NCBI GenBank assembly: GCA_037441385.1
Contig: JBBISH010000038.1
Span: 1 to 47,574 of the forward strand
Origin: Myxococcales bacterium
GTDB lineage: Bacteria > Myxococcota_A > UBA9042
DNA: 47,574 nt
Reading direction: 5' to 3'
Shown: positions 327 to 46,234 of the stretch, piece after piece
Numbering within the stretch: the stretch's first letter is position 1
How the letters are laid out: each line of letters opens with the position of its first letter
Program-made: the position numbers and the translations under genes
Notes under the pieces: generated by a model
Seen by the model: the letters and a program-made list of their open reading frames with translations, nothing else
Told to the model about the DNA's origin: nothing
Databases searched by the model: none

Positions 327-3300
327 GTGCCGCCGTGTGGGAAGATTGTACGTGACCAGCTGCGGCGCCTCGCTGTGCTGTTGGTCGTCCTTGTCGCGGC
401 CTGCAGCTCGATCGCCCAGCGCATGGACAGGCACCTGCAGGCGCGCGAGTGGGATGAAGCGATCTCGCTGGGGGAAAAGTGGATCGACGCTCAGAATCCG
501 GCCAAAGTCGATCCCGGCGAGTCGCAGAAAGTTCGGCACTTGCTGGCAGAGGCGCGCCTGGGTCGTGCCAAGAAAATCGACACGGTCGATGCGTACGGCG
601 AAGTGGTCGAGGCCTATCCGGCGGGCGAGCCGCGCGACATCGTCGCCGAGGCGAAGAAGCGCCTGACGGCGACGTGGTACCGCGACTACACCACCAAGCG
701 CGGCAAAGTGGACGATTATCGCGTATTCCGGGCCAAGTTTCCTGAGGCGGCGGAAGTCGCGGCCAGCAAAGCGGCCGAAGCGGCGGTTGCCCTTGCGGAC
801 CTTGGACCCACTCCTACCGTTGCTGCCCTGGACCAGTGGCGCGAAAGCTATGAGGCTTGGCCAGAGGCGGCCAAGTCGGCCTCCCAAGCGCGTTCGACCG
901 AAGTCGACCTGGTGGTCGCCGAGGCGCGGCGGATCGACACCTTGGCCGCATGGCGTGGCGTGTCAGCCAAGTTGGCCGGGTGGGCGGAGGCCACCAACGC
1001 GTTGCCAGAAGCCCGCAAGCGCGAGGTCGAGCTTGCTTTTGCCGAAGCAGACCGCGCCGAAGGCGTGGACATGTTGCGGGCCTTTGTCGATCGGTACTGG
1101 GGCTGGCTGGAAGCCCGCGCGCAGGTCCAGCTGGCCCGAGAGCATATTCGCGTCAAGCGCCTGGCGGCGGCGCTGGCGGCCGGTGACGAGGGCGCGGCGC
1201 TCCGCGAGTTCATCGAGCACTATCGCGCAGACCCCGATGCGGCTGTCCAGGTCGACGAAGCCCGTAGCCGGCTGGCGGAGCGCCTGTGGGCCAGCGCGCG
1301 GGCGTCCTTGGATGTCGGCAAGCTGAAGACCATCGTGGCGGAATTCCCCGAGGCACCCCAGGCCGCGTCGGCGGCCTCGTTGCTCGCCTCGATTCAAGCC
1401 TACAATGCTTCGCCCGGTCGAAACGAATGGACCGTGGAGATGGGCGCCATGTCGCGAACGGCAACCGGAACCGTGCGGGCGTTTGTGCAAGTCTTGGGGC
1501 CGGATGGCGCCCCAGTGGGCGGACTGCGCCGCGACCATTTTCAGGTCCTGCTCCCCTCGGGATCCCTGCCGATAGCGGGTTTTGCAGGGACCGACGAGAT
1601 GCGGCCCCTGGACATGGTGCTGGTCTTTGACGTTACCGGCAGCATGTCCGTGCAGATTGACGCAGCCAAGGCCGCCGCCTTGGAATTTGCCGCGGGTCTG
1701 CGTTTGCGCAACCGCGATGCGCGCTTTGGGGTGGTGACGTTTGGCGATACCGTGCAGCGGGTCTTTGCGCCGTTGACACCCGATATCGAGACGTTGCGCG
1801 GCTGGCTGGGAAGCATGACGTCAGGGGGTGGCGATGACACGCCCGAGAATCCCTTGGATGCCATGGCCGTCGCTGTGGGACTCAAGTTCAGGCCCAATGC
1901 GCAAGTGGCGCTGATTCTTATCACCGATGCCCCAGCTCATGTCGCTGACCGCGTGACCACTCGGACCTTTGAGCAGTTGACCAGCCAATTGTCGTCGCGC
2001 AGCATCACGCTCTTTGCCGTGGGGCCGAACTGGCCGCCCTACCGCGAGATGACGGCCAAACTGGGCGGCCAATTGTTCCCGATCGGCGACGCGGCCGCGT
2101 TCGAATCCGCATTTTTGCAGCTCGGAACACTGACGGCCAAGCAGTACGAAATCGCTTTTGCCGATCCGGCCGAGAGTGTGGACCCTGCCATGGCCGCGAC
2201 GGTGGCCAAGTATCGGCCCAGGGTGCGGGCATTTCGCGACATCTCTTGGGCGACGGCTGGCAGTGCGCCGCCCGGTGAGTTCGCCATCATGGTCGAGGAC
2301 TCGACCATCTCGGCCGCGTGGATGGCGGCGGCAGTGGGTGGTGGTCTTTTCTATAGCAGCGATGGAGCCAAGACTTGGCGGCCTGCGGGCAAACCAACTG
2401 TGCAGACCCTCCTTAATGTGGGGCCGCATTCTTGGCTCCTGCTGGATGACACCGGGCGGATTCAGCGCAGCGGCGGCGACGGAGCCCAGTGGACGACGGC
2501 CGACTCGGCGCCCGCCGCATGTGTTGCCATTGCCCAAGACTTTGCCCGACCGAGCCACCTTTGGGCGGCAACCGCTTCGTCGATCAGCGAATCCCAAGAT
2601 GGTGGCCTCACCTGGAGCACGGCCGCGGCAGCCGGCGGGGCCGAGTCCGCGATTGTGAAGGCTTGGTCTGCGCCCGGTGGACGGTTCCTGTATTTGCGCG
2701 CCGACGCATCGGCGTGGGAGTGGACCGGCCCGCAATCGCGGTCGCGGCGGTCTGCGTTCCAACTGCCACCGCTGGTGGCTGGCCATCGCGCCCGATTCGT
2801 CGTGCCCTGGTGGAACGGTCACGTGGTGCTCGTCTTGGGCGAAGATGGGCGTCTGTGGCGTTCTGGCAATGGCGGCGCGACGTGGGTCGAACTGACGATC
2901 GCCCGAGCCGGCGGACGCACTCACTTGCGCTACGTCGTCGCCGACCGGGCCAACCTGCGCCGTTTGGTGGCCATCGGCGACGACGGATTGTGGCTATCGG
3001 ACGATGCCGGGTTGACGTGGCGCCTAGCCGGTGAGGGCTTGTTGGCTGCGGACCTGCAGCGTAGCTCCGTTGCCCTCTCCTCGCGGGGTGGACTCCTGCT
3101 CGCGTCGGCGCAAAGCAAGCGCGTGGTTCGCCCGGCCGCGGTGGTCGACCGCGAGTTCGTGGCCAGCCACGTCTATTTCCCAACCGGCAGCCACCGCATC
3201 AATGACGAACTCCGCGCGTATCTCTTGAAGCTGGCAGACAGGATTCGCGGCCGCCTGCACCTGAGCGTCCGCATCGACGGGCACACCGACGATGTGGGCG

Positions 3301-9630: not shown

Positions 9631-10665
9631 TCACACCGGGTCTAGATCGAATTGACCAAGCAGCGCCGCCAATTGCGGCCACAGGGTCTTGGCCGCCGGC
9701 GACGAGGTCATGCCGCCCACATGGCTGCCATCAAAGACCACGTGCTCTTTGCGCGCGGATTGCGTCCACTGCAGCAGCGGCTCGCAACAGGGCGCCGGCG
9801 CAATGGAATCCAGCGCGAACGTCACCGCCAGGACCGGCGTGCGCACCGCCGCCAGATCGACTTTGCGGCCGTTCACGATCAGGGTGCGGTTGGCCAGGCC
9901 ATCGCGCTGGTACAGGTCGCGCACGTAGCGGCGGTAGAACTCGCCCGGCAAGCCCACGTTGTCGTTGGCCCACGTCTCTAACGCCAAGAAACCGTCCAGG
10001 AATTTGTCGTTCCAGGCCCGGTCGATCAGGTTGACGCCCTTGGCCAGCGGCAACGTCGGCCGCAACATCTGGAAGCTGGCCTGCAGCAGCGGCGCCGGCA
10101 CCACCCCGGTGGCATCGATCATCGCATCGATGTCGAAGTGGCCGCCGCGCAGCCAATCGCCCATGATTCCAGCACGATCGAAGGCGACGGGCGCCGCCAC
10201 GGCCGTCAGCGACTGCACCTTGTCAGGGTGCAGCGCCGCATAGACCGCGGCCAGGGTGCCGCCCATGCAATAGCCGAACAGATGGACCTTTTTCGCCCCC
10301 GACAGCCGCTCGGCCACGCCCGCCGCCCGGCCGATCGCTTGATCCACCACCTGGTCAAACGTGACGAAGCGGTCTTCGGGCCGCGGGCTGCCCCAATCGA
10401 TGCAGTACACGTCGAAGCCGCGTGCAACCATGTATTCCACAAAGCTTTTGCCGGGCGTCAGGTCCAGGACGTAGTGGCGGTTGATCAGCGACGGCACCAG
10501 CAGCAGCGGGTGGTGGACGGTGGGCGGTTGCGGCGAGAAGTAGTGCAGCAGCTGCCAGCTGCCCTCGCGATGCACCACCGCGTGCGGCGTGACCCCCACT
10601 TGCGGCCGCGGCCGCTTGGGCAAAGTCAGCAGGTTGCGCAGTCGATTGACCAGGTTGGGCTGCAT
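9631..10665 (-). CDS. phaC: Class III PHA synthase subunit PhaC (copy 1)
   Basis: PLLLVPSLINRHYVLDL, DWG, lipase box GYCMGG, LETWAND, catalytic Asp (LDSIAP) and His (GSHVG). Confidence 0.88.
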   Translation of the reverse strand: MQPNLVNRLRNLLTLPKRPRPQVGVTPHAVVHREGSWQLLHYFSPQPPTVHHPLLLVPSLINRHYVLDLTPGKSFVEYMVARGFDVYCIDWGSPRPEDRFVTFDQVVDQAIGRAAGVAERLSGAKKVHLFGYCMGGTLAAVYAALHPDKVQSLTAVAAPVAFDRAGIMGDWLRGGHFDIDAMIDATGVVPAPLLQASFQMLRPTLPLAKGVNLIDRAWNDKFLDGFLALETWANDNVGLPGEFYRRYVRDLYQRDGLANRTLIVNGRKVDLAAVRTPVLAVTFALDSIAPAPCCEPLLQWTQSARKEHVVFDGSHVGGMTSSPAAKTLWPQLAALLGQFDLDPV

Positions 10666-10683
10666 GATGCGATCCTTCACCTT

Positions 10684-17398: not shown

Positions 17399-17627
17399 CC
17401 GGGGCCTCGGGGTGGCGGCCTGAGGGGCCGACGCGGAAATGATTACGCGGGTGCACAAAACTGTCAACCCGGAAATGCAATAGCTTTGTCGAGATTGCCT
17501 GGCAAGGGTCCGCGGACCTCTTCACCGCAGGCGCAAAATGAATTATCGTGGGCGGGCGCCGCCGGATCCGCTCGGGCCCCACCTGGGACAACTGCCGCTG
17601 CTGTGCCGCTGCTGCGCAAGGATCGCC

Positions 17628-18320
17628 ATGTTGCTCAAGAAATACGCCAATCGCCGTCTCTACGACACGGCTGCCAGCCGCTACGTGACGTTGGACGAGG
17701 TCGCCGAACGCATTCGCGGCGGCGAGGAAGTCATCGTCATCGACGCCGCGGACGGCAGCGATCTGACCCAGGCCACCCTGACCCAGCTGATCCTGGAAAG
17801 TCGTGGAGCCGCCAAGCTTTTGCCCGTGCCGTTGCTGCATCAGCTGGTCCGGTTGGGCGACGACGCTCTGGCCGAGTTCTTCAATCGCTGGATCAGCTGG
17901 GCGCTGGAATTCTACGTGGCGGGCCGCCAGAGCGCGGGGTGGTTCAACCAGTGGAACCCCATGCAGAACCTGCCGTTCTTCCAGGGTGGCGGCGTTCCCT
18001 GGGGTTGGCTGGCAGGGCGCGATCCGCGTTCGGGGCCGCCCTCCGCGGTGCCACCGAGCCAGGCCGTGGGTCCGGGGCCGGGCATGGGGCAGGCGGGCGG
18101 GCCCGGTGTGCCTCCTGGGATGGTGCCCAATAGCCCGATGGGGCCGCTGGGGCCTATGGGGCCGATGGGACCGGGGATGCCGCCGCCGCCGATGGGGCCG
18201 ATGCCCGTCGCCAACGACGAGGACGTGGCCCGTTTGCGCCGCGAATTGGAAGAGTTGCGTGCCGGCATCAAGGGGCGCAAGCGCGGGCCGCGCAAGAAAA
18301 CGCCGCCCGCGGCCGAGTAG
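17628..18320 (+). CDS. phaR: PHA synthesis regulator PhaR-like protein with Pro/Gly/Met-rich insert
   Basis: LKKYANRRLYDTAASRYVTLDEV is the PHB-accumulation regulator N-terminal motif; C-terminal coiled coil LRRELEEL. Confidence 0.88.
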   Translation: MLLKKYANRRLYDTAASRYVTLDEVAERIRGGEEVIVIDAADGSDLTQATLTQLILESRGAAKLLPVPLLHQLVRLGDDALAEFFNRWISWALEFYVAGRQSAGWFNQWNPMQNLPFFQGGGVPWGWLAGRDPRSGPPSAVPPSQAVGPGPGMGQAGGPGVPPGMVPNSPMGPLGPMGPMGPGMPPPPMGPMPVANDEDVARLRRELEELRAGIKGRKRGPRKKTPPAAE

Positions 18321-18479: not shown

Positions 18480-19550
18480 ATGCAAGCTGCCCCCTCGGCC
18501 GATGTGGCCGCCGCCCTGTCTGCCACCCATCCGCTGTTCACCGCCATGCCCACCATTGTTCAGTCGTTCCAGACGGTCGGCGGCAAGATGATGCCCACGC
18601 CGCGGACCACCGTGTTCCGCGATGGGACCGCCACGCTGATGCGCTTTGAGAACGAGGCGGGCGAACATGGAAAGGGTGCGGCAGTGCTGCTGGTCCCTTC
18701 GATGATCAACAAGTGGTACGTGATGGATCTGCGCCCTGGTGCCAGCATGATCGATGCGCTGGTCAAGCAGGGGCTCGACGTGTTCTGCGTCGATTGGGGT
18801 GAGCCCCAGGCCGAGGACCGCTACCTGAGCTGGGACGACGTGCAAGAACGCTTGGCGCGGATGATGCGCGCGACCCGCCGGATTGCCGGGCGATCGCAAA
18901 TCGGTGTGCTGGGTTACTGCATGGGCGCCACCCTGTGCGCGGTGGCGGTGGCGCGCAACCAGCAGGGTGTGTCGGCGCTGATTAACCTGGCAGGTCCCAT
19001 CGACTTTTCGCATTCGGGCGTGCTGGGCGAGATGACCGATGCGCGCTGGTTCGACGGCGACACCATCGCCGCGGCGGGCAACATCACCCCCAGCCAGATG
19101 CAGAGCGGCTTTACGGCGATGCGGCCCACGCTGCAGATTGGCAAGTGGATTGGCCTCGTCGACCGGGCCGAGGACGTGCTGGCCGTCGACGCCTTTGCCG
19201 CCATGGAGACCTGGGCCAACGACAATGTGCCGTTCCCCGCCGCCGCCTATGCCACCTACATTCGCGAGCTCTATCAGGGCAACCTGCTGGTGGCCGGCCA
19301 GCACGTCGCCTGTGGCAAGCGGGTCAAGCTGGCCGACATTACCTGCCCCGTCATGGTGATTTGCGCCTCCAAGGACACCATCTGCCCGCCGCCGGCCGCG
19401 ACCGCGCTGGCCGAGCGCTGTGGCAGCGAAGTGAAGAAAGTCGTGACGGTTCCAGGCGGTCACGTGGGCGCCGTGATCGGCAGCCGAGCTTCGCGCGACT
19501 TGTATCCGGCCATCGGCCAGTTCTTTGCCGAGCATGTGCCTATGGCGTAG
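18480..19550 (+). CDS. phaC: Class III PHA synthase subunit PhaC (copy 2)
   Basis: VLLVPSMINKWYVMDL, DWG, GYCMGA, METWAND, KDTICP and GGHVG; AAGGAG RBS. Confidence 0.88.
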   Translation: MQAAPSADVAAALSATHPLFTAMPTIVQSFQTVGGKMMPTPRTTVFRDGTATLMRFENEAGEHGKGAAVLLVPSMINKWYVMDLRPGASMIDALVKQGLDVFCVDWGEPQAEDRYLSWDDVQERLARMMRATRRIAGRSQIGVLGYCMGATLCAVAVARNQQGVSALINLAGPIDFSHSGVLGEMTDARWFDGDTIAAAGNITPSQMQSGFTAMRPTLQIGKWIGLVDRAEDVLAVDAFAAMETWANDNVPFPAAAYATYIRELYQGNLLVAGQHVACGKRVKLADITCPVMVICASKDTICPPPAATALAERCGSEVKKVVTVPGGHVGAVIGSRASRDLYPAIGQFFAEHVPMA

Positions 19551-36966: not shown

Positions 36967-39900
36967 TCAGCCGTTCCCCAACCCCGGCAACCCCGCCACG
37001 ATCTTCATCGTCTCCAAGCTAACCGTAACCACCCGCAGAAACAACTCCAGCGGATACTTCGGGTTCCCCATGGTCTCCACAGCCCAGTCGTTGGCGTCGT
37101 TCACAATCCCGCTGTCCTTGTCGGTCTTGACGCACTGCCGCTCGACCACCCAGTCCAGTGCCGGCTTGCCGTTGACGACGTACTCGTAGGCGGCGAGCGG
37201 GATGTTGCGGACGGTGATGTGCGCGTTGTACTCCAGCGTCGTCAGCTCCTTGTCCTTGCCGTTCTTGCCGTAGCGCATCTTCTCCACGCGGTACTCTTTG
37301 TCGGTCAGCGTCTTGCCCCGGGTGTCGACGATGGCGTGCGGGTACATGGGCACGCTCTCGTAGTGGACGTGGAGGTCGGCGAGGCGGCGGCCGGCGGCCG
37401 AGAATGCGGCGAAGGCGGCGTAGGTCGGCACGCGCGGGATGCGGGGCAGTTCTTTGGACAGGTTGTCGGCGTAGCGGGACCGGTACTCGGGGGAGTGGAG
37501 CAGGCCGTAGATGTAGTAGAAGAGGTCTTCTTTTGAGATCGGGTCGTTGGGGTAGGCGGCCTGGAAGTGGGCGAGGCCGGCGTCGGTGATGGCGTCGCGG
37601 CGCTTGGGGGTCGTGGGCTGGGTTGGCGCGTCGAAGAGGCCGGGTTGGGCGCTAGGCGTGGTGGGGGTGGGATCGGGTTGGTCGTAGAGGTAGAGCGCCA
37701 TGCACTGGCCGTTGCCCTGCAACTGGAATTCTGGGGGCAGGTTCGTAATGATCGCAGAAAATCCATTTGGCGTACCGAGGCCCGTCACCGCCAGAACCAA
37801 ATTCGCGCAATCTGGCGATGGAAAGTACTTCGGGATCGAGTAAACGTACTCGTTCCACATGCGATCGAGGTACAGCCATTCCTTTGTGAACGGCCGATAC
37901 ATGCTCATGCGCACACCAGCTTGAACAAATGAAGCCACCTTGCCCTTGCCGAATGCGCCTCGTAGCCCTCGCGACCACGCGATGCGGTTGGGGTCGTTGC
38001 TCGGGCCTTGTACGGCAGCCCGTGACGGGGAATCGCGGTCAATTGCCAGCTGTTCGTTGTAGAAGTCTACCGTTTGCGTGATGTTTCGGCCCAATCTGTT
38101 GTGCGAGAAGTTGACGCACCATGCATCGCGTGCGGTTGTGACACCGCTGGAGACTTTCTCAAACATGGCGGAACCGCCAGCCGCGTCTTTGCTGTAGAGC
38201 GCCATGAATTCGCCAAATGCCTGATCCCGTTGTCCACGCCAATCGCCATGAGCGTCAGGCACGACGACTTGCCAACCTTGAGCGCTCGCAATGCCACCAA
38301 CGTGAACGAATTCACTTAGCCTCGACAGCTTCTGCTCGCGCGTTAGGTAGTCGCCGATATCGTGGAAATGGATCTGGCCGTGCGTCGCCGCCGTCGGATT
38401 CTTGACAAGCACCGAGATTGCGATCGGTGCGCGGCTCCCCAACCCAAAAACGTTGTCCTTTTCTTTCCGCCGTTGTTCGCCTGACGTTCGGGCGTTGCCT
38501 CTGAGATGGAACACGTAGATGTCGGTGAACTCCCTGGCGAGGCACTTTCGCATGCCATCAGCCGAAGTTGCATCCAGGAAGCCCGCGTTCGTCACGAAAG
38601 CGATGACCCCGCTATTGCCCACGCGGTCGCTTGCCCAGCGGATTGCGCGAACATACGAGTCGTACAATCCGCGGGAATTCGTGGCAGTCGATGCGGCCTG
38701 ATAGGTGTCGCTGATGTGCTGGTCAAGCTGCGGATACGGCACATTCTTGTTGTCATCGTTGGCGTCCCCTTGGCCTATCGAATAAGGCGGATTCCCCAAA
38801 ATAACCTGAATACTCTTCAACCCCTTCTGGCGAGTCCGCCGGTTGCTATTCTCAACCAGCATCTTCGCCACCAGGTCCTCGTGCTCCTGCATCTGGAACG
38901 TATCGGTCAGGCAGATGCCCTCGAACGGCGTGTACTCCCCGCCCACAATCCCGTGGTACGCCGCCTCGATGTTCACCGCCGCGATGTAGTACGCCAGCAG
39001 CACGATCTCGTTGGCGTGGATCTCGCCCGCCTTGTACTTCCGCTCCAGCTCCTCCTTGCTCAGCAACCCGCTCTGCATCAACCGGGTAATAAACGTCCCG
39101 GTCCCGGTAAACGGGTCCAGCACATGCACGCCTTCGCTGCCCAAGCTCTGCCCGAACTCCGTCCGCAGCACGTGGTCCACGCTGTGGATGATGAAGTCGA
39201 CGATCTCGACCGGCGTGTACACGATGCCCAGCCGCTCGGTCATTCTGGGAAAGGCGTTGCGAAAGAACTTGTCGTACAGCTCGACGATGATCTTCTGCTT
39301 GCCCTCGGCCTTGTCGATGCCGGCGGCGCGCATTTTGACGCTATCGTAGAACTTCTGCAGCGTGTCGGCCTCGCTGTCCAGCCGGTGTTCCTTCAGCACC
39401 TCGAGCACCGACTGCATCGCCTTGGAGATCGGGTTGTGCTGGGCAAAGCTGTAGTCGGCAAACAGCGAGTCGAACACCGGGCGGGTGATCAGGTGCTGGG
39501 CCAGCATCTCGATCACCTCGCCGTCGGTGATGCTGTCATTCAGGTCGTCGCGGAGTTCGGTGGCAAACTCCTCGAAGGCGGCGCGCTCGGCCGTGTTGCT
39601 CGGGTCCGCTAGGATTGTCTCGATGCGCGTGATGTGCGTCTTGGCAATCCGAGCGATGTCGCCGGCCCAGTCCTCCCAGTGCCGCCGGTTGCCACACTTC
39701 TGCACCACCTTGGCGTAGATGGCCCGCTCCAGGTCGCCGATGTCGAACTGCAGCGGCACTTGGTGCGCCGTGGCCTCGCGCTTTTGCGCCGGCGCTCCGA
39801 TAACCCCAGTGCCGCGCCCCGCATCCTGCTTGCCCGGCTTCTTGGCCTTGCGCTGCACGGCGTCGCTGACGGCCACGATCTCCATGCGGCTGATGTCGGG

Positions 39901-41868
39901 GCCAATCAGGTCCATCTTGTTGACCATCGCGTCGAAGCGATCGTCGTGCGAGCGCAGGGCCTGCAGCACCTGCCAGACCACGCGGTAGGTCTTGTTGTCG
40001 CTCAGGGCCTCCTCGGGCGACAGGTCGGCCGGGATCACCACCGGCAGCACGATGTAGCCACGCTGCTTGCCCGGCGCCTTGCGCATTACCCGACCCACCG
40101 ACTGCACCACGTCGATGGCCGAGTTGCGCGGCGTCAAGAACAGCACCGCGTCCAGCGCCGGCACGTCCACGCCTTCGGACAGGCAGCGGACGTTGCTCAA
40201 GATGCGGCAGGTCTCGGGGCCCGCGTCCTCTTTGAGCCAAGACAGCTTGGCTTCCTTCTCGCTGGCGTTCATGCCGCCGTCGACGTGCTTGACCTCGCAG
40301 GCCAGCTTGGCCGCCGCGCGCTCGTCGTCGGGGTTGCTCTCTTGGTAGGTGTCGATCACGTCGCCAAAGATGGTGGCGATGTGCTTCGAGCTCACCTTGT
40401 GGGTCTTGGCGCCGGTCTGGTACTCGATCACCTGGCAGAAGGCCACCGCCCGCCGCATCGGCTCCAGGTCGTCGGCCAGATCCTCGGCCGTGTCCTGCTT
40501 GCTCAGCGCCTTCCAACAGCCGACGATCTTGGCCGCATCCTCTACTTTGAGCTGGTTGTCGTCGTCCTTGAACAGCTTCTGCAGGCGCCGGCTGATGTGC
40601 CGCTCGTCCACCGCCAGCACCAGCACCTTGTAGTCCACCAGCAGATCGGCCTTGACCGCCTCCGAGAACGTCAAGACGAACAGCTCTTTGCCGTACAGCG
40701 CCGGGTCGTCCATCGAGCAGAGCGCCACGTTGTCCTTCTCGGCGGTAGCCTTGGCCGAGTCGGCAAAGATGCGCGGCGTCGCGGTCATATACAGACGCTT
40801 ACCGCCGCGAATCACGGCGCCGTCGTGCACCCGCACAAACGCGCTCTCTTCTTCGTCGTCAAAGGTCGCGCCTGTGGTGCGGTGGGCCTCGTCGCACACA
40901 ATCAGGTCGAACTCGGCCAGGCCGAACTGGTGCTGCGCGTCGGCGATCACCTGGATCGAGTGGTAGGTGCTGAACACCACGCTCATGTGCAGTTGGTCGT
41001 AGCGCTTGGCCATCTCGATCGCCAGCCGGTCGGCCTGGGTCGTCGCCGGATAGCGCAGCTCGTGCGTGTAGGTCTGGACGAGGTCGGCGTCCTTGTCGCG
41101 CTTGTTCCCCACGTCGCTGTCCGAGCACACGGCAAAGCTGTGCAGCGGCGTCTCGCTCTCTTGCGTCCACTCGGTCAGGGTCTGCGAGAGCAGCGACAGG
41201 CTGGGTACCAGGAACAGCACCCGGCCACCCGCGCCGGCCAGGCGCTCGGCCACCTTCAAGCTGGTAAAGGTCTTGCCCGTGCCGCAGGCCATGATCATCT
41301 TGCCGCGATCGGCCAGGGCCAAGCCCCGCTCCACCGCCGCCACCGCCCGCTGCTGGTGCGGCCGCAGCTGCTTCTTGGCCTTGATGACCGCCTCGTGGTT
41401 CCGCTGATAGCGCGACCAGTCGATCTGGCTGTTCTCCAGATCCAGCAGATCGATGCGGCTCACCGGGATCTGCTGACCCTGCAGGGCCGCCGCCGCGTTC
41501 GCCGACCAGTGATCGGTGGTCGCCACGATCATGCGATGCGCAAATGGCTTCTTGCCCGAGGCGGTAAAGAAGCTGTCGATGTCGCTCTTCTGCACAACGT
41601 GCTGCGGGTGGAAAAACTTACACTGAATCGCGTGGATCTCGCCCGTGCCCGCCGTCTTGGCCACCAAGTCGATCCCGACGTCGCGGCCGTCGATCCCCTG
41701 CAGGGCCGCCCACTGCGAATAGGTCCACACGTCGCTGTACAGGTCCTTGTAGGTCGCCTCGTTGCGCAGGTAGCAGACGATCAGCTCTTCGAAGTAGGTG
41801 CCCTTCTCGCGTTCAGTGACCGCGGCTTGGCGGAATTGCTCAAGAATGGCGTGCAGGGGCGAGGGCAT
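36967..41868 (-). CDS. Type ISP restriction-modification enzyme (LlaGI/LlaBIII-like: Mrr-type nuclease, SF2 helicase, N6-adenine MTase, TRD)
   Basis: GIDLV...IQCK nuclease; MACGTGKT, DEAH, TATP and QSVGRVMR helicase; LDPFTGTG and GNPPY MTase; YRPF and YVVNGKPALDW C-terminus. Confidence 0.93.
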   Translation of the reverse strand: MPSPLHAILEQFRQAAVTEREKGTYFEELIVCYLRNEATYKDLYSDVWTYSQWAALQGIDGRDVGIDLVAKTAGTGEIHAIQCKFFHPQHVVQKSDIDSFFTASGKKPFAHRMIVATTDHWSANAAAALQGQQIPVSRIDLLDLENSQIDWSRYQRNHEAVIKAKKQLRPHQQRAVAAVERGLALADRGKMIMACGTGKTFTSLKVAERLAGAGGRVLFLVPSLSLLSQTLTEWTQESETPLHSFAVCSDSDVGNKRDKDADLVQTYTHELRYPATTQADRLAIEMAKRYDQLHMSVVFSTYHSIQVIADAQHQFGLAEFDLIVCDEAHRTTGATFDDEEESAFVRVHDGAVIRGGKRLYMTATPRIFADSAKATAEKDNVALCSMDDPALYGKELFVLTFSEAVKADLLVDYKVLVLAVDERHISRRLQKLFKDDDNQLKVEDAAKIVGCWKALSKQDTAEDLADDLEPMRRAVAFCQVIEYQTGAKTHKVSSKHIATIFGDVIDTYQESNPDDERAAAKLACEVKHVDGGMNASEKEAKLSWLKEDAGPETCRILSNVRCLSEGVDVPALDAVLFLTPRNSAIDVVQSVGRVMRKAPGKQRGYIVLPVVIPADLSPEEALSDNKTYRVVWQVLQALRSHDDRFDAMVNKMDLIGPDISRMEIVAVSDAVQRKAKKPGKQDAGRGTGVIGAPAQKREATAHQVPLQFDIGDLERAIYAKVVQKCGNRRHWEDWAGDIARIAKTHITRIETILADPSNTAERAAFEEFATELRDDLNDSITDGEVIEMLAQHLITRPVFDSLFADYSFAQHNPISKAMQSVLEVLKEHRLDSEADTLQKFYDSVKMRAAGIDKAEGKQKIIVELYDKFFRNAFPRMTERLGIVYTPVEIVDFIIHSVDHVLRTEFGQSLGSEGVHVLDPFTGTGTFITRLMQSGLLSKEELERKYKAGEIHANEIVLLAYYIAAVNIEAAYHGIVGGEYTPFEGICLTDTFQMQEHEDLVAKMLVENSNRRTRQKGLKSIQVILGNPPYSIGQGDANDDNKNVPYPQLDQHISDTYQAASTATNSRGLYDSYVRAIRWASDRVGNSGVIAFVTNAGFLDATSADGMRKCLAREFTDIYVFHLRGNARTSGEQRRKEKDNVFGLGSRAPIAISVLVKNPTAATHGQIHFHDIGDYLTREQKLSRLSEFVHVGGIASAQGWQVVVPDAHGDWRGQRDQAFGEFMALYSKDAAGGSAMFEKVSSGVTTARDAWCVNFSHNRLGRNITQTVDFYNEQLAIDRDSPSRAAVQGPSNDPNRIAWSRGLRGAFGKGKVASFVQAGVRMSMYRPFTKEWLYLDRMWNEYVYSIPKYFPSPDCANLVLAVTGLGTPNGFSAIITNLPPEFQLQGNGQCMALYLYDQPDPTPTTPSAQPGLFDAPTQPTTPKRRDAITDAGLAHFQAAYPNDPISKEDLFYYIYGLLHSPEYRSRYADNLSKELPRIPRVPTYAAFAAFSAAGRRLADLHVHYESVPMYPHAIVDTRGKTLTDKEYRVEKMRYGKNGKDKELTTLEYNAHITVRNIPLAAYEYVVNGKPALDWVVERQCVKTDKDSGIVNDANDWAVETMGNPKYPLELFLRVVTVSLETMKIVAGLPGLGNG

Positions 41869-42097
41869 GGTGATCTCCGTGGGAACTGGCGCGAGCCCTT
41901 TGGGATGGATCACCCAATGCCCGCGGTGGCCCGCGTTGTACGCCACCGGCAAGGCCGGTTCAAGCATCCCCGCGCTATTGCTGCACCGCGCCCCGCTCGG
42001 ATCGCGAAAAAAACTTGCCCAATCCCAGCCCCCATGGCAATTCAACCCCAAGCGCATATCCCTCACTCACCCCTCCGCGCCCAAAGGAGACCCAGCT

Positions 42098-42844
42098 ATG
42101 TCGACCAAACCACTCGACCCCGCCAAGACCGTCCCGGCCCTCGCCGTGACTCCCGCGCAAGTCCTGAAATCTCCTTCTAAGTACCTGCCCAGCCTGGTCG
42201 CCATCTACCAAGGCATCGCCAAGGCCAACGCCGGCTTCTTGTTCCCGGCTGACCTGTCGGCGGCGCTGGTGCACGACCACATTGTCAATCACTTGGCCAG
42301 CGAAGCCGCCCACACCAGTGCCGGCCAGCAAGAGCGCACCGCGGTGGCGCAGCGCAACACCCTGTACAAGCAGGCCGAAGCGTTGTTGTCGCGGCTGGAG
42401 AGCCTGGTCAATGGCAATTTCCCGGCCGGCACTCCGCAGCGCGTCGACTTTTTTGTGCCTGGCGCCGCGCCCACGCTGCGCTCCGAGCGCCTGACCGCGA
42501 TGGTGGCCGGCATCAAGGCCCACAACCTGCAGCCGCTGCCCGCCGACTGGCCGCTGACCGCCATCGAGGCCCTCACCACCCAGACCGCGGATGCCGAGCA
42601 GGCCCGCGAGGCCGTGATTACGACCCGCAAGGGCGCCGCCACGGAGCGCGAACGCCTGGAACAGACCACCGCCAGCATGGCCCAGCGCCTGCGCAAGGTG
42701 ATTGAGGGCTACTACGGATCGAAAAGCCCCGAGCTCGTGCAGTTTGGCCTGCTCGCCAGGAAGATTGCGCGCGGCGGCGGGCGCAAGAAGAAGCCTGCGG
42801 CGCCGATTCTGCCGGCCGACGGGTCGAATCAGGCGCCGGAGTAG
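42098..42844 (+). CDS. Uncharacterised alpha-helical protein with internal two-fold repeat and basic C-terminal tail
   Basis: AAGGAG RBS; high-GC3 codon use; halves align by eye (AVAQRNTL...LVNGNFPAGTPQRVDF vs AATERERL...VIEGYYGSKSPELVQF); tail RKIARGGGRKKK. Confidence 0.85.
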   Translation: MSTKPLDPAKTVPALAVTPAQVLKSPSKYLPSLVAIYQGIAKANAGFLFPADLSAALVHDHIVNHLASEAAHTSAGQQERTAVAQRNTLYKQAEALLSRLESLVNGNFPAGTPQRVDFFVPGAAPTLRSERLTAMVAGIKAHNLQPLPADWPLTAIEALTTQTADAEQAREAVITTRKGAATERERLEQTTASMAQRLRKVIEGYYGSKSPELVQFGLLARKIARGGGRKKKPAAPILPADGSNQAPE

Positions 42845-43054
42845 GCGCTTGCGGCGCGGGTCGGGTCGATTTCGCCGCGCTCCGGCTCGATGCCGCTGCG
42901 GTCCAAGTCGAATTCCCACCGGTCCGCGTCGATTTCACACTTGACCAGGTCGATTGAAGTACAGGCCGAGTCGATTACAGTCCAGGTCGGATCGATTCCG
43001 CGCCGCGCCATCAAGATCCAGCCCGATGTCAGGAAGATAGCGCCGCAATCCGGA
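42845..43054 (+). repeat. Degenerate tandem array with exact 21-nt period (TCGATT-like core, variable 15-nt remainder)
   Basis: Cores at 42866, 42887, 42908, 42929, 42950, 42971 and 42992 (TCGAwk) and at 43013 and 43034 (AAGATm); a degenerate unit starts at 42845. Confidence 0.9.
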
Positions 43055-43118
43055 CCTTGTCCTGTGCTCCCGTCGCGCCGGCACCTTGGGTCAAAACCCC
43101 AAGCCCCAGAATAGCTTG

Positions 43119-43171
43119 CCCCTCGCCCAAAGCTTTGGGAGAGGGGCAGACGCGTAGCGTCGGGGTGAGGG
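43119..43171 (-). repeat. REP-like element, inverted copy of 29559-29609
   Basis: Reverse complement ccctcaccccgacgctacgcgtctgcccctctcccaaagctttgggcgagggg differs from the first copy by 2 substitutions and a 2-nt indel. Confidence 0.85.
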
Positions 43172-43189
43172 CCCCGACACTCCCGACCC

Positions 43190-43405
43190 CTAAGACGCCC
43201 CTTGCACCCACGCCCCCACCATCTGCACGGGCCTGCGGTCCACTTTGAACGCTGGGTTCCGCACATGCTGAAAATCCGCCGCCAACCAGCGCAAACGCAC
43301 AACCGGCGCGCAGCAGGAAACGTCGCAGACCTGCTCGCTGGCCTGCCGCAGGTCGCCGTCGCCGATGAAGCCGTCGACGCCGCCCAGGTCGAGGTTGCCG
43401 GCCGT
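43190..43405 (-). pseudogene. Degenerate C-terminal fragment of an OprB-family carbohydrate/Mn2+ porin
   Basis: LGGVDGFIGDGDLRQASEQ...WLAADFQHVRNPAFKVDRRPV matches the porin C-terminal pattern GG..F.GDG.L....E...D(Y/F)Q...NPA(Y/F)N.DRGPV; N-terminus absent. Confidence 0.6.
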
Positions 43406-43612
43406 CTGGGGTATCGTAGCTGTCCTGTGTGTCCTCGATCCATGCCACAGCCCTGTGGGCCCAGGCCTCCGGGCGCCCAAGCCCCAGTGCCGAAATCTCG
43501 GCAGCCCCCGCCGAAATGTCGGCACATGCTTCATCCGTTAATGTCCATGCAGATCCGCGCACCAGCACCGTTCGCGCCGGGCCAGCACCGCACGGCCCAC
43601 CTTGGCCCGCCG

Positions 43613-43660
43613 AAAAACCGGCAGCCGCCCGTCAGGTCGGGGGACCCGGCGGGCGGCTGC
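43613..43660 (-). terminator. Probable intrinsic terminator of the multiheme cytochrome gene
   Basis: Inverted repeat GCAGCCGCCCG/CGGGCGGCTGC followed on the minus strand by CGGTTTTT. Confidence 0.65.
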
Positions 43661-43699
43661 GGCGCCCGAACAGCTGGGCGCAGGTTCGCGGTCAGCGGC

Positions 43700-46234
43700 C
43701 TACAAGACGGGGAATTTGTGGCAGGCCGCGCCGCAGGCATTCGTGTACGGAATCGGCATCACCTTGCCAAGCGGACCCTTGGCCGCCGCGGGGTCGATGT
43801 TCTTGATCAGCGCCTTGGCGGGCACGTCAAAGATGTGGCTGGCGATGTCGTTTTGGTAGAAGCCCTTGGCGGCCGCGGTGCCGGCGCCCGACAGCGCGGT
43901 CTTGACCATGTGGCAGTCCTGGCAGGTGGCGCCCATCGCTGCGGCCATGGTGGTCTTGGCCTTGACGTGCGCGTCCAGTCCGGCCTGGCTGGCGTAGTCG
44001 GCGTGGCACTTGCCGCAGATGGCGGTGGTCGTGGGGTCTTCTTTCAGCTGCGCCACGTTCTTGGTGCTGTGGACGTTGTGGCAGTCGCTGCACACCAAGA
44101 GTTGTTTGCCGTTGCGGTAGTGGCTGCTCTTGATGAACTCGCTGTACTGCTGGTGGTGCTTGACCGAGTGCTTGCCGTCGCCCACGCTCGCGAAGGTGCC
44201 ATCGGTAGCTGCGGCCGCGAGCGCGTGGATCCCGTCGTCGATGGCAGACACGTTGTTCTTGAGCCAGTCGGCGCGGCGCGTGCCCGGGATCATCATGTTG
44301 CCGGCCGCGTCGAGCGGGGCCTCAGTCTTGCCGGCGCCGGCGCCCGCCACGCGGCTGTGGCACTGGCCGCAGATCATGTTCTCGCGGTCGGGCGACAGGT
44401 TTTGCGGGGTGACGATGTAGAGGCCCTTGCCCTGGTTGGCCATGTGGCGCGAGCCGGGGCCGTGACAGGTCTCGCAGCCCACGTTCAGCGCGTCGGCGGT
44501 GCCGTCTTTGTCAAAGTCGTACGATCCGCCGATGTCGGGCGTCAAGAAGGCCTTGTAGGTGTTGGTGACGGCGGCGGCCAGGGCGCTGACGCCCACGGCG
44601 TGGCAGCCCAAGCAGTTGTTGTCAAAGGCCTTGGTGTCCGACGGGCTCTTGGCGACCTTGTTGGCTTCGTCGTACCAGCGGTCGGTGTTGTAGCCGATGA
44701 TCTCGCGGCGATCGCTCGGGGTGGCGGCGCTGTTGTCGTGCACGCCCTGGTCGTTGATCTGAATGGGCAGGATCTGGCGGAAGCCGTTGATCTCGACCAC
44801 ATAGCGCTGCTTGTGGATGCCGCCGCCGTAGCTGAGCTGCACCGCATAGGTCGAGGGGGTCTGGTTGGCCTTCAGGTTCTCGACCGTGGCGGTCAGCTTG
44901 CCTTCGGGGGTCTTGCCCATGGTCAGCTTGAAGCTGGGGGTCTTGGCCGCGAGCCAGGCGGCATCGGGCTGGGCCTCGCCGGCCTTGACCAGGTAGGTGG
45001 CGTACGACGGCGGCGCGCCGGTGGGGTTGCCGGTGTAGTAGTAGATGGTCGTGGCGTTGTCGAAGTACTTCAGGCCGTTGTCAAAGGTCGGCCACAGCTT
45101 GGTGTCCAGCTTCTGCAGGCCGTCGTTCTTGCCGGGCTCGCGGATGCCCATGAAGTGCATGGTCGACTTCACGCTCACCTTGCTGTGGCACATGATGCAC
45201 ATGGTCGAGCCCACGTAGACCGCCGTGCCCACCGTCATCGACAGCTTGACGTCGACCCGCTTGCCGACGAGCAACGTGCCGGCATCTTTGGCGATGCGCG
45301 ACATGTCGCCGCCGGGCAGGTGGTTGGCGTCGGTGCTGGCCGGCAAGACGTACAGGTAATAGGTGCCGGCGGCCACGGCCTTGACGTCGTAGATGCCGTT
45401 CGCGTCCGTGACGGCGTTGGCATAGGTGGGCGCCGCAATTTGCGCGTCGATCAGGTCTTCCAGCGGCTCGTCGTTCTTGTCGGCGATGACGTCGGCCATC
45501 GCCAGTGTCTTGGGCGTCGCCGAGTCGACCACCAGCTTGACCTTGCTGATCGCCGTCGCCGGGACCAAGAAGACCTGGGCGCCGGCCACGGGGGCGTTGG
45601 CCGTGTCCGTCACGCGGCCGACCAAGCCGGTGGCGTCCAAAGCAATCGTGGGGTTATTCGGGTCTGGGGCCGGGTCGCCCTTGGCCCCCGTGTCGCCCTT
45701 GGCACCGGTGTCGCCCTTGGCGCCGTCCTTGACGGTGATGCTGCTGGTGCCGCAGGTAATAGTGAACGTGCCGTCCTTGTTGTCCACGGCTGCGCAGTTG
45801 GCTCCGTCTTTGCCGGCGGCGCCGTCCTTGCCGTCCGCGCCCGCCGCGCCGTCCTTGCCCGCGGCGCCGTCTTTGCCCGCCGCGCCATCGCTGCCCTTGG
45901 CGCCGTCTTTTAGGGTGACGCTTTCCGTGCCGCAGGTGACGGTGTAGGTGCCGTCTTTGTTGTCCAGGGCGGTGCAGGCCTTGGCCGGGTCGCCCTTGGC
46001 GCCGTTGCTCACCGTCACGGTCGTCTCGCCGCAGGTGATGGCAAAGGTGCCGTCCTTCTTGTCGACGACCGTGCAGCCGGTGCCCGTAGTCCCTTGCTTG
46101 CCGGCCGGGCCGACTTCGCCGGTGCAGCTGGCCAGCGCGCCGAGTGCCAGCACCGCCAGTGTGTGACCGACCGCGGCGCGCACGCCTCGGCCAACCGTGA
46201 GCTCAAAACCTTTCTGTTTCATCGTGTCTTCCAT
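43700..46234 (-). CDS. Multiheme c-type cytochrome lipoprotein with collagen-like stalk
   Basis: Lipobox LASC; GxY collagen repeats; seven CxxCH (CIMCH, CLGCH, CETCH, CGQCH, CSDCH, CGKCH, CQDCH) plus terminal CGAACH. Confidence 0.92.
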   Translation of the reverse strand: MEDTMKQKGFELTVGRGVRAAVGHTLAVLALGALASCTGEVGPAGKQGTTGTGCTVVDKKDGTFAITCGETTVTVSNGAKGDPAKACTALDNKDGTYTVTCGTESVTLKDGAKGSDGAAGKDGAAGKDGAAGADGKDGAAGKDGANCAAVDNKDGTFTITCGTSSITVKDGAKGDTGAKGDTGAKGDPAPDPNNPTIALDATGLVGRVTDTANAPVAGAQVFLVPATAISKVKLVVDSATPKTLAMADVIADKNDEPLEDLIDAQIAAPTYANAVTDANGIYDVKAVAAGTYYLYVLPASTDANHLPGGDMSRIAKDAGTLLVGKRVDVKLSMTVGTAVYVGSTMCIMCHSKVSVKSTMHFMGIREPGKNDGLQKLDTKLWPTFDNGLKYFDNATTIYYYTGNPTGAPPSYATYLVKAGEAQPDAAWLAAKTPSFKLTMGKTPEGKLTATVENLKANQTPSTYAVQLSYGGGIHKQRYVVEINGFRQILPIQINDQGVHDNSAATPSDRREIIGYNTDRWYDEANKVAKSPSDTKAFDNNCLGCHAVGVSALAAAVTNTYKAFLTPDIGGSYDFDKDGTADALNVGCETCHGPGSRHMANQGKGLYIVTPQNLSPDRENMICGQCHSRVAGAGAGKTEAPLDAAGNMMIPGTRRADWLKNNVSAIDDGIHALAAAATDGTFASVGDGKHSVKHHQQYSEFIKSSHYRNGKQLLVCSDCHNVHSTKNVAQLKEDPTTTAICGKCHADYASQAGLDAHVKAKTTMAAAMGATCQDCHMVKTALSGAGTAAAKGFYQNDIASHIFDVPAKALIKNIDPAAAKGPLGKVMPIPYTNACGAACHKFPVL

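Follow-up and report, generated by a model that had tools for sequence, protein, structure and literature searches.

What is the tract of phased 21-nt repeats that directly follows the gene of an unnamed protein family in a Myxococcales genome, and which factor, if any, would act on it? The window analyzed here is an entire contig of 47,574 nt (JBBISH010000038.1; C38 of genome G000) with a GC content of 66%. The gene in question, P0001 (42098-42844, plus strand), encodes a 248-aa protein of an unnamed, lineage-restricted family; a helical unit is present twice in it, and its C-terminal tail is basic (RKIARGGGRKKKP...). An initial annotation of the window had offered three candidate roles for the tract, namely phased protein-binding sites, a processed small-RNA/guide array bound by the protein, or a hidden heptad-repeat coding region. 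Phased protein-binding sites appeared to be the best fit among the three, and we tentatively read the tract as a non-coding cis-acting array of such sites, most likely for the adjacent P0001, so that gene and array would form one module. This reading draws on the comparison of sequences among relatives.

The array is highly regular. Its TCGA tetranucleotides start at 42866, 42887, 42908, 42929, 42950, 42971, and 42992, at a spacing of exactly 21 nt with zero indels. These positions define seven strong units (42866-43012) with the core (G)TCGAWT, a pyrimidine-C pair 4-5 nt 5′ of the core, and variable GC-rich spacers. Two flanking units lie in phase ahead of them (42824-42865), the one at 42824 beginning with TCGAAT and the one at 42845 being degenerate, and two weak in-phase units follow (43013-43054), which begin with AAGAT instead of TCGAT, before the phase is lost after about 43055. 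The initial annotation had counted ten contiguous units from 42845; their 21-nt phase indeed runs on without an indel, but they resolve into seven strong and three weak units, since the unit at 42845 has no TCGA and those at 43013 and 43034 begin with AAGAT. All seven strong units contain TCGA (7/7), each of the next two bases is a T in 6/7, and the pair ahead of the core has its pyrimidine in 7/7 and its C in 7/7, with the other columns close to random. Both the conserved 6-nt core and the NYC at unit positions 16-18 had been described before and were confirmed.

The 21-nt periodicity is real and beyond chance. The motif TCGAWT is rare in this genome (6.63 Mb), where the two strands together hold 3051 sites, and the sole chain of at least three sites at 21-nt spacing is the window array; no other phased genomic targets of the window core were found in this genome. 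The lag-21 identity of the array is 0.65, and values of at least 0.60 were reached in 21 regions genome-wide, mostly in coding low-complexity sequence, while Tandem Repeats Finder reported only two 2-copy fragments in the window array. Outside the core, identity was 0.46 between adjacent units (n = 6) and 0.25-0.38 at distances of two to five units, where 0.29 would be expected at random; between the first and last strong units it was 0.67 (n = 1). The earlier impression that neighbors are most alike is thus borne out only weakly. The contigs from three DNA sequencing runs that belong to a single study revealed no variant form of the array; the X2 fragments were identical but did not cover 42809-43116, and the sole divergent contig in those runs was the paralogue fragment on contig C160 described below. 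Scans of sequence collections for the contigs of P0003-P0005, relatives with 76-80% identity to P0001, returned none of them.

The initial annotation had proposed to look for a 21-nt period beside homologues, and the result of this search was positive. The P0001 family has 62 representatives at E ≤ 0.001 among 1.84 billion proteins, and it is present in 10-11 of the 37 genomes of one family-level Myxococcota lineage, which constitutes the whole order. Outside that lineage, one weak partial match was found in 70 other genomes of the class, and the look-alikes in the ESM Atlas were unnamed Myxococcota clusters only. As judged from these sequence matches, the family is confined to one family-level lineage. 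A total of 18 full-length family genes were delimited, comprising the window's own gene and 17 from nine related genomes, and 500 nt on each side were scanned with a criterion of lag-21 identity of at least 0.55 in a 105-nt window, 45 lags being compared. Such arrays were found beside 7/18 genes, and an eighth, L005, reached 0.50; lags 21 and 42 (22 and 21 in L012) were the top-ranked of the 45 lags in all eight. The arrays lie downstream of the gene in the window, L007, L012, and L015, and upstream of it in L011, L014, L019, and L005. The density of such regions in the window genome, 0.0106 per kb, would predict about 0.2 arrays in the roughly 19 kb of flanks. Since L005 and L019 are orthologues, the arrays represent seven independent lineages.

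These arrays share an architecture, in which each 21-nt unit holds a conserved core of 5-10 nt between free spacers, and the number of units ranges from 5 to 25. The L014 array, with 25 units and up to 534 nt, keeps its phase unbroken by indels. The cores themselves differ: GTCGATT in the window, TCATTTCAG in L007, GGTCTAnCGGT in L015, GCGGACAATTC in L011, and CCGATCGAAG in L005 and L019, with an additional CATTTCC in L019. The pentamer GTCGA is found again in L002, L014, and L015, and L007 and L019 share CATTTC. In 6/8 arrays, the core coincides with an A/T patch (A/T ≥ 0.7) amid GC-rich spacers. Between L005 and L019, whose proteins are 74% identical, the core CCGATCGAAG and the period have been kept and the spacers have diverged. 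A looser pattern of the L019 core, searched in genomes G007 and G008, gave many coding matches, and chains of matches occurred only at the L019 module itself (G007:C50) and at its duplicate (C62); G008's own module gave a single match.

Could such a tract be a functionless mutational by-product, that is, slippage or tandem-duplication debris at the ends of a fast-turning-over module, seeded here by the final 21 nt of P0001? The unit at 42824 lies inside the gene, two units upstream of the strong run, where it coincides with the last seven codons and stop of P0001, and it resembles unit 1 of that run, which suggests that the array may have grown out of the 3′ end of P0001, and the L012 array overlaps the stop of its own gene. 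Periods of 16, 41, and 66 nt also occur beside family genes, some of them near-perfect and hence young. Two of these arrays, a 41-nt unit repeated 5.7 times that reaches the contig end (L021:2046-2281) and a 66-nt unit repeated 4.6 times (L005:2226-2526), are both near-perfect, both directly follow the stop of a family gene in genome G008, and have related unit sequences (GCGAAGCGC..GCCA.GTCT.CC). Scattered gene fragments and duplicates (C160, L046, L047) likewise fit such turnover, as does the slightly greater likeness of adjacent units than of distant ones. The fragment on C160 (G000:C160:9546-9733, equivalent to L016:1504-1691) matches the final ~190 nt of the P0001 gene at 89% identity, lacks both the 5′ part and an array, and abuts the end of a convergent membrane-protein open reading frame (ORF).

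Uneven conservation across the columns is what slippage explains poorly. In simulations of uniform decay to a mean identity of 0.54, which does not exactly match the observed mean of 0.59, only 0.13% of 4000 runs gave at least four adjacent invariant columns, and at higher decay no run gave four; the real arrays show 4-6 such columns amid near-random spacers. Moreover, core and period persist between the orthologues L005 and L019 in spite of their diverged spacers, and the 25 units of L014 have remained in phase with no indel. We therefore consider slippage debris an unlikely explanation.

The arrays could also be protein-coding. The initial annotation had suspected a hidden heptad-repeat coding region, and an open 60-codon frame, P0002, does exist on the minus strand (42829-43011), convergent with P0001 and overlapping its stop by 16 nt. 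It would encode MARRG followed by seven [I/F]-[D/E]-x5 heptads. The frame is open from an ATG, its GC content by codon position is 0.60/0.42/0.78, and its codon adaptation index (CAI) of 0.59 is one that real genes also show, ranking at the 14th percentile of their 60-codon windows; the L015 array, read in the matching orientation relative to its gene, likewise gives [PIVLF]-[DE] heptads. Against this, the P0002 frame shares its third positions with the P0001 frame, and of the open antisense frames in this register relative to a real gene, 23% reach an equal CAI. No Shine-Dalgarno sequence precedes P0002, compared with 12/18 family genes that have one, and no homologue, called protein, or Pfam or NCBIfam match was found for it. 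Its composition, rich in W, C, and R, is typical of GC-rich non-coding frames.

A further point concerns the core. On the minus strand, its final T (TCGATT) becomes a third-position A in the codons GAA, GGA, GTA, and TCA, of which GGA, GTA, and TCA have a usage of at most 0.04. Since this A is kept across the codons of four amino acids, it is the nucleotide rather than the residue that appears to be conserved. Likewise, the L015 core forces the codons GTA, ATA, and TTA (xTA for V, I, and L) in a frame with a CAI of 0.22, and in L007 the frames equivalent to P0002 carry stops within the core. All frames across the other seven arrays contain stops or have a CAI of at most 0.49, a single frame at 0.52 holding ten stops, where the CAI of the arrays from related genomes was computed with the codon table of the window genome as a proxy. 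Pfam searches of the long minus-strand ORF, the plus-strand ORFs across the array, and the L019 array frame gave sub-threshold chance matches only. Most of the arrays are thus non-coding; on this evidence the arrays in general are probably non-coding, P0002 is probably no gene, and a heptad-repeat protein is a very improbable account of the tract.

Read-through of the P0001 TAG into the array was also considered and was rejected because the CAI of the extension is 0.39, which is below the first percentile (0.46) of real 60-codon windows, and because the relatives P0003-P0005, which are 76-80% identical to P0001, have the same length (248-250 aa). The P0001 frame nevertheless stays open for 89 codons past the TAG (42845-43114, plus strand) and ends in ...KPQAPE, comparable to P0001's own ...NQAPE; this final stretch is shifted by 5 nt against the 21-nt phase. 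The post-TAG frame may be a relic of the original gene end.

An array acting as RNA, either as an element of the 3′ untranslated region or as a processed small-RNA or guide array bound by P0001, was the remaining proposal of the initial annotation. Four arrays begin 0-90 nt from a stop codon and would be co-transcribed unless transcription is terminated, a consensus scan revealed no terminator-like site between gene and array, and the protein is basic enough for RNA binding. However, the region 42845-43060 folds no better than dinucleotide shuffles on either strand (z = 0.05 and 0.57), and a search of the array against Rfam returned no family but only a sub-threshold match to a neighboring palindromic element. 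The conserved part is merely 6-9 nt, and the other four arrays lie upstream of the gene.

The position of the upstream arrays relative to the promoter bears on the same question. A consensus promoter and terminator scan of 41800-43800 gave zero sites of either kind. A candidate −35 element, CTTGCC, preceded by an A-run, can be read at 42014-42019 (plus strand), 84 nt 5′ of the P0001 start codon, and is likely P0001's own promoter, judging by the hexamer [ACT]TTG[AC][AC] found 62-125 nt ahead of the start codon in 14/18 family genes. At the three upstream-type loci with a readable upstream region, L005, L019, and L014, an A-run and CTTGnn element, conserved between L005 and L019, follows shortly after the end of the array. 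If this element is a promoter, these three arrays lie outside the transcript of the gene. The guide-array proposal found no support in these results, and a role as RNA is the least probable of the explanations weighed here.

What kind of protein, then, stands beside the arrays? The coding signals of P0001 itself are strong, with a GC content at third codon positions (GC3) of 0.85-0.95, a CAI of 0.70, and a Shine-Dalgarno sequence (aaggag) ahead of the ATG. An AlphaFold2 model built on a 48-row alignment had a mean predicted local distance difference test (pLDDT) score of 93.3 and placed helices at residues 30-42, 55-107, and 113-118, and again at 128-142, 153-206, and 211-216. The modeled fold is a duplicated unit with two helices of ~53 residues, followed by a less confident basic tail, in agreement with the two copies of a helical domain and the basic tail that had been annotated. 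The isoelectric point (pI) is above 9 in 48/48 aligned family members (median 9.9), and the net charge of the first 25 tail residues is at least +4 in 43/48. The P0001 tail contains GGGRKKKP, and a looser G-[RK]-[RKP] motif occurs in 21/48 members. A canonical AT-hook protein of the HMGA/CarD type was rejected as an identity on the basis of this tail and of the rarity of the GRP core. A homodimer prediction with two copies of residues 15-222 scored 0.17 against a mark of 0.42, which is evidence neither way.

The family matches nothing named in the collections searched. The best Pfam matches of P0001 were Cgr1 (E = 0.026) and KfrA_N (E = 0.28), both far short of the cut-offs, and over the 48 aligned members no Pfam family was found in more than 1/48. 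No family match was obtained in NCBIfam, PADLOC, or PHROGs, a profile search of PDB sequences returned nothing below E = 0.2, and Foldseek returned nothing in the PDB at E ≤ 0.001. In a wide structural search, the closest matches were generic long-helix bundles (RAP, BAR, YscO/FliJ), whose Z of at most 8.3 is under the meaningful level for helical proteins.

The case for binding sites rests on the arrays being non-coding, on cores that form A/T patches in GC-rich spacers, and on a pI above 9 in every aligned family member. A short core at two-turn spacing, free spacers, a variable number of units, cores that differ between paralogues and are kept between orthologues, and co-inheritance with one gene together make up the pattern that binding sites would leave. 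On this basis we infer the following arrangement. P0001 is modeled as a very basic helical rod, whose ~53-residue helices of ~8 nm (at 1.5 Å per residue) come close to the 7.1 nm of 21 bp. Several protomers could lie side by side on the DNA, about one per 21-nt unit, each touching an A/T-containing core (GTCGATT), probably via its flexible lysine/arginine tail. Because 21 bp corresponds to two helical turns, all cores would face one side of the DNA, and a cooperative nucleoprotein tract could form. An array just upstream of its own promoter might then serve as an autoregulatory operator, and one between the gene stop and neighboring DNA, as in the window, as a roadblock or insulator bordering a strain-specific island.

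Several findings weigh against P0001 as the binder of its array. Searches of Pfam, PDB profiles, Foldseek, and the wide structural comparison revealed no recognizable DNA-binding domain, and the canonical AT-hook GRP core is present in 2/48 family members only. No k-mer is common to the arrays of three or more lineages, and the cores differ even between L007 and L015, which are paralogues with 58% identity. There is no array beside 8/18 family genes, the position of the array varies (four downstream and four upstream), and some family genes are accompanied by other periods (41 nt in L021, 16 nt and partly masked in L008, and an extra 66 nt downstream in L005), which are unfit for two helical turns. 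The window genome also contains about a dozen other short 20-22-nt intergenic arrays, none of which lies beside a P0001-like ORF. Finally, all relatives come from one bacterial family and are not fully independent, so that the enrichment looks somewhat stronger than it is.

Three of the four downstream arrays are at the same time upstream of a further co-directional gene and could therefore be bound by something other than P0001. The arrays might serve a different factor, perhaps a regulator of the host or an architectural protein, which controls a neighboring gene or the promoter of the module, with P0001 as a bystander. The downstream arrays of L007, L012, and L015 indeed lie 130-330 nt ahead of the next co-directional gene (an SDR, an OPT transporter, and a lipoprotein gene), those of L005, L019, and L014 abut the −35 region of the family gene, and the further short arrays of the window genome occur just upstream of unrelated genes. 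However, no plus-strand gene follows the window array. The neighbors are mutually unrelated, yet the arrays track the family gene, even in the truncated duplicate L047, and the enrichment is specific to the flanks of the P0001 family. A different factor is in our view a distinctly unlikely explanation, and sites for P0001 itself are the reading carried forward below.

By analogy with known systems, the module would work most like iterons with their Rep protein or like a partition centromere with its adaptor, though it belongs to neither group. Iterons of theta-replicating plasmids are bound by Rep initiators such as R6K pi, pPS10 RepA, and F RepE. As in these, direct repeats follow one another without gaps, at a period of about 21-22 bp, beside the gene of a ~250-aa protein with an internal duplication, and the repeat sequence differs among paralogues. 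Unlike them, P0001 is modeled as an all-helical rod rather than a winged-helix Rep and has no match to Rep_3 or any other Pfam family, 6-9 of 21 positions are conserved, and the loci are chromosomal and lie between housekeeping genes. Signs of an iteron-type origin were absent from 41800-43800, where neither the DnaA box consensus TTATCCACA at up to one mismatch nor a 40-nt stretch below 45% GC was found.

Centromere-like arrays with partition adaptors, such as ParR-parC of R1 and pSK41 or TubR-tubC, are likewise short direct-repeat arrays beside the adaptor gene, at or near its promoter, and the site travels with the gene. These adaptors coat their repeat array cooperatively. In contrast to them, the P0001 gene has no adjacent ParA-, ParM-, or TubZ-type NTPase gene, its neighbors being a Type ISP and a cytochrome gene here and housekeeping genes in the relatives, and its modeled fold, also after structural search, is neither ribbon-helix-helix (RHH) nor helix-turn-helix (HTH). 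H-NS, Lsr2/CgpS, and the HMGA-like CarD of Myxococcus combine an oligomerizing helical part with a basic tail that binds the minor groove. A helical part with a flexible basic tail, A/T-patch cores in GC-rich DNA, and a strain-specific segment bearing restriction-modification (R-M) genes would all fit that group, but no relation in sequence or fold to P0001 was found, the hook core GRP occurs at the frequency given above, and we know of no dedicated phased array beside the genes of these proteins themselves. BldC, a small MerR-like protein, multimerizes head to tail on direct repeats; P0001 would similarly occupy repeats of variable number, one protomer to each and in head-to-tail order, but the repeat period of BldC is much shorter and no homology to P0001 was found.

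Two further identities were rejected. An R-M C protein with its C-box is at odds with P0001, for which neither an HTH family match nor an HTH fold was obtained, and an R-M gene adjoins 2/18 family genes. A CRISPR array, which the initial annotation had already excluded, would have repeats of ~23-50 nt compared with a conserved part of 6-9 nt within the 21-nt unit, and no cas gene was found among the scanned ORFs of the window. Among known kinds of elements, the tract would be classed by analogy with cis-acting phased repeat arrays beside the gene of a presumed binder.

The genomic context of the module varies among the loci, and gene and array appear to behave as a unit. In the window, P0001 is divergent, as had been annotated, from a complete Type ISP R-M gene on the minus strand (36967-42066; Pfam domains Mrr_cat_2, ResIII, Helicase_C, ISP_coupler, N6_Mtase, and Type_ISP_C), which probably begins at the Met near 41868, and a multihaem cytochrome gene lies on the other side. 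Homology with genomes of the same genus covers the cytochrome gene and ends at about 43489-43700, which places the array, P0001, and the Type ISP gene within a strain-specific segment; the earlier description of a position at the edge of a defense island is supported to that extent. At L019, 5/5 other genomes of the genus align only from 29 nt past the gene stop. At L007, where the family gene is divergent from a Type I HsdM gene, congeneric genomes align only from the next gene onward. According to these alignments, the module lies at all three loci on the variable side of a boundary with conserved DNA. L005 and L019 are 74% identical over promoter and gene, with unrelated flanks, and the truncated duplicate L047 in the L019 genome carries the array, the promoter, and the first ~70 codons together. 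The flanking genes of the relatives are unrelated housekeeping genes.

An R-M gene adjoins, besides the 2/18 full-length genes, one half-size relative in genome G023. This ~115-aa single-repeat relative (L087, about 1269-1539, minus strand; G023:C82) corresponds to profile positions 140-231 with a weak match of 15 bits and lies directly upstream of, and co-directional with, the orthologue of the window's Type ISP gene (75-79% DNA identity). Together, the window, L007 beside HsdM, and the G023 relative hint at a link to R-M loci. The P0001-family gene and its array may constitute an undescribed, self-contained chromosomal module, in which a basic rod with no known DNA-binding fold polymerizes at one protomer per 21 bp on a co-evolving array. 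Such a module would be carried along, copied, and lost in one piece at the edges of strain-specific (R-M) islands, where it could act as a boundary or insulator or as the anchor of a mobile segment. This wider proposal is possible but doubtful. No title or abstract opening returned by a full-text literature search describes such a module.

If P0001 does coat its own array, DNA would be bound in a new manner, by a rod of duplicated long helices that carries a basic tail but lacks an HTH, RHH, or winged helix, and whose cognate site is written beside its gene. The paralogues with different cores would then provide a natural series for studying how such a rod reads DNA, and the position at the borders of strain-specific segments, twice beside R-M genes, invites the question whether bacteria flank acquired islands with dedicated boundary elements. 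If the arrays are slippage debris instead, they would still mark an unnamed, lineage-restricted gene family with unusual turnover.

Other repeated sequences were observed around these loci. A palindromic dispersed element resembling repetitive extragenic palindromes lies beyond the window array (43116-43172) and is the source of the sub-threshold Rfam match, to whalefall-1, at 25 bits compared with a gathering score of 37. Contigs C9, C7, and C6 of the same genome carry further copies of the first 24-39 nt of the element. A dispersed repeat of ~55 nt with many copies in the genus likewise follows the array of L007 (L007:2431-2490). The segment 43192-43386 has a 79% identical copy at G000:C125:2659-2853 and is overlapped by a 114-aa ORF on the minus strand (43190-43534; GC3 of 0.80, no Pfam match). 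Hexamer tracts of the type (CCGGAA/CCGGAG)n flank the family genes of L014 (below 894) and L020 (about 1300-1400 and 2240-2330); those of L020 are inverted on both sides and are read as (PE)n tails of convergent neighbor genes.

About 23-33 kb to the left of the array, the window encodes two PhaC-like alpha/beta hydrolases and a PhaR-type polyhydroxybutyrate (PHB) regulator (9631-10680, 17538-18320, and 18480-19550), an ordinary chromosomal context. The other 20-22-nt arrays of the window genome have 3-5.5 copies with high identity, often just upstream of a gene, and include C2:164718-164802, C12:55198, 64340, and 75798, C55:14494, C58:6222, and C101:5015, among others, with three of them within 20 kb on C12.

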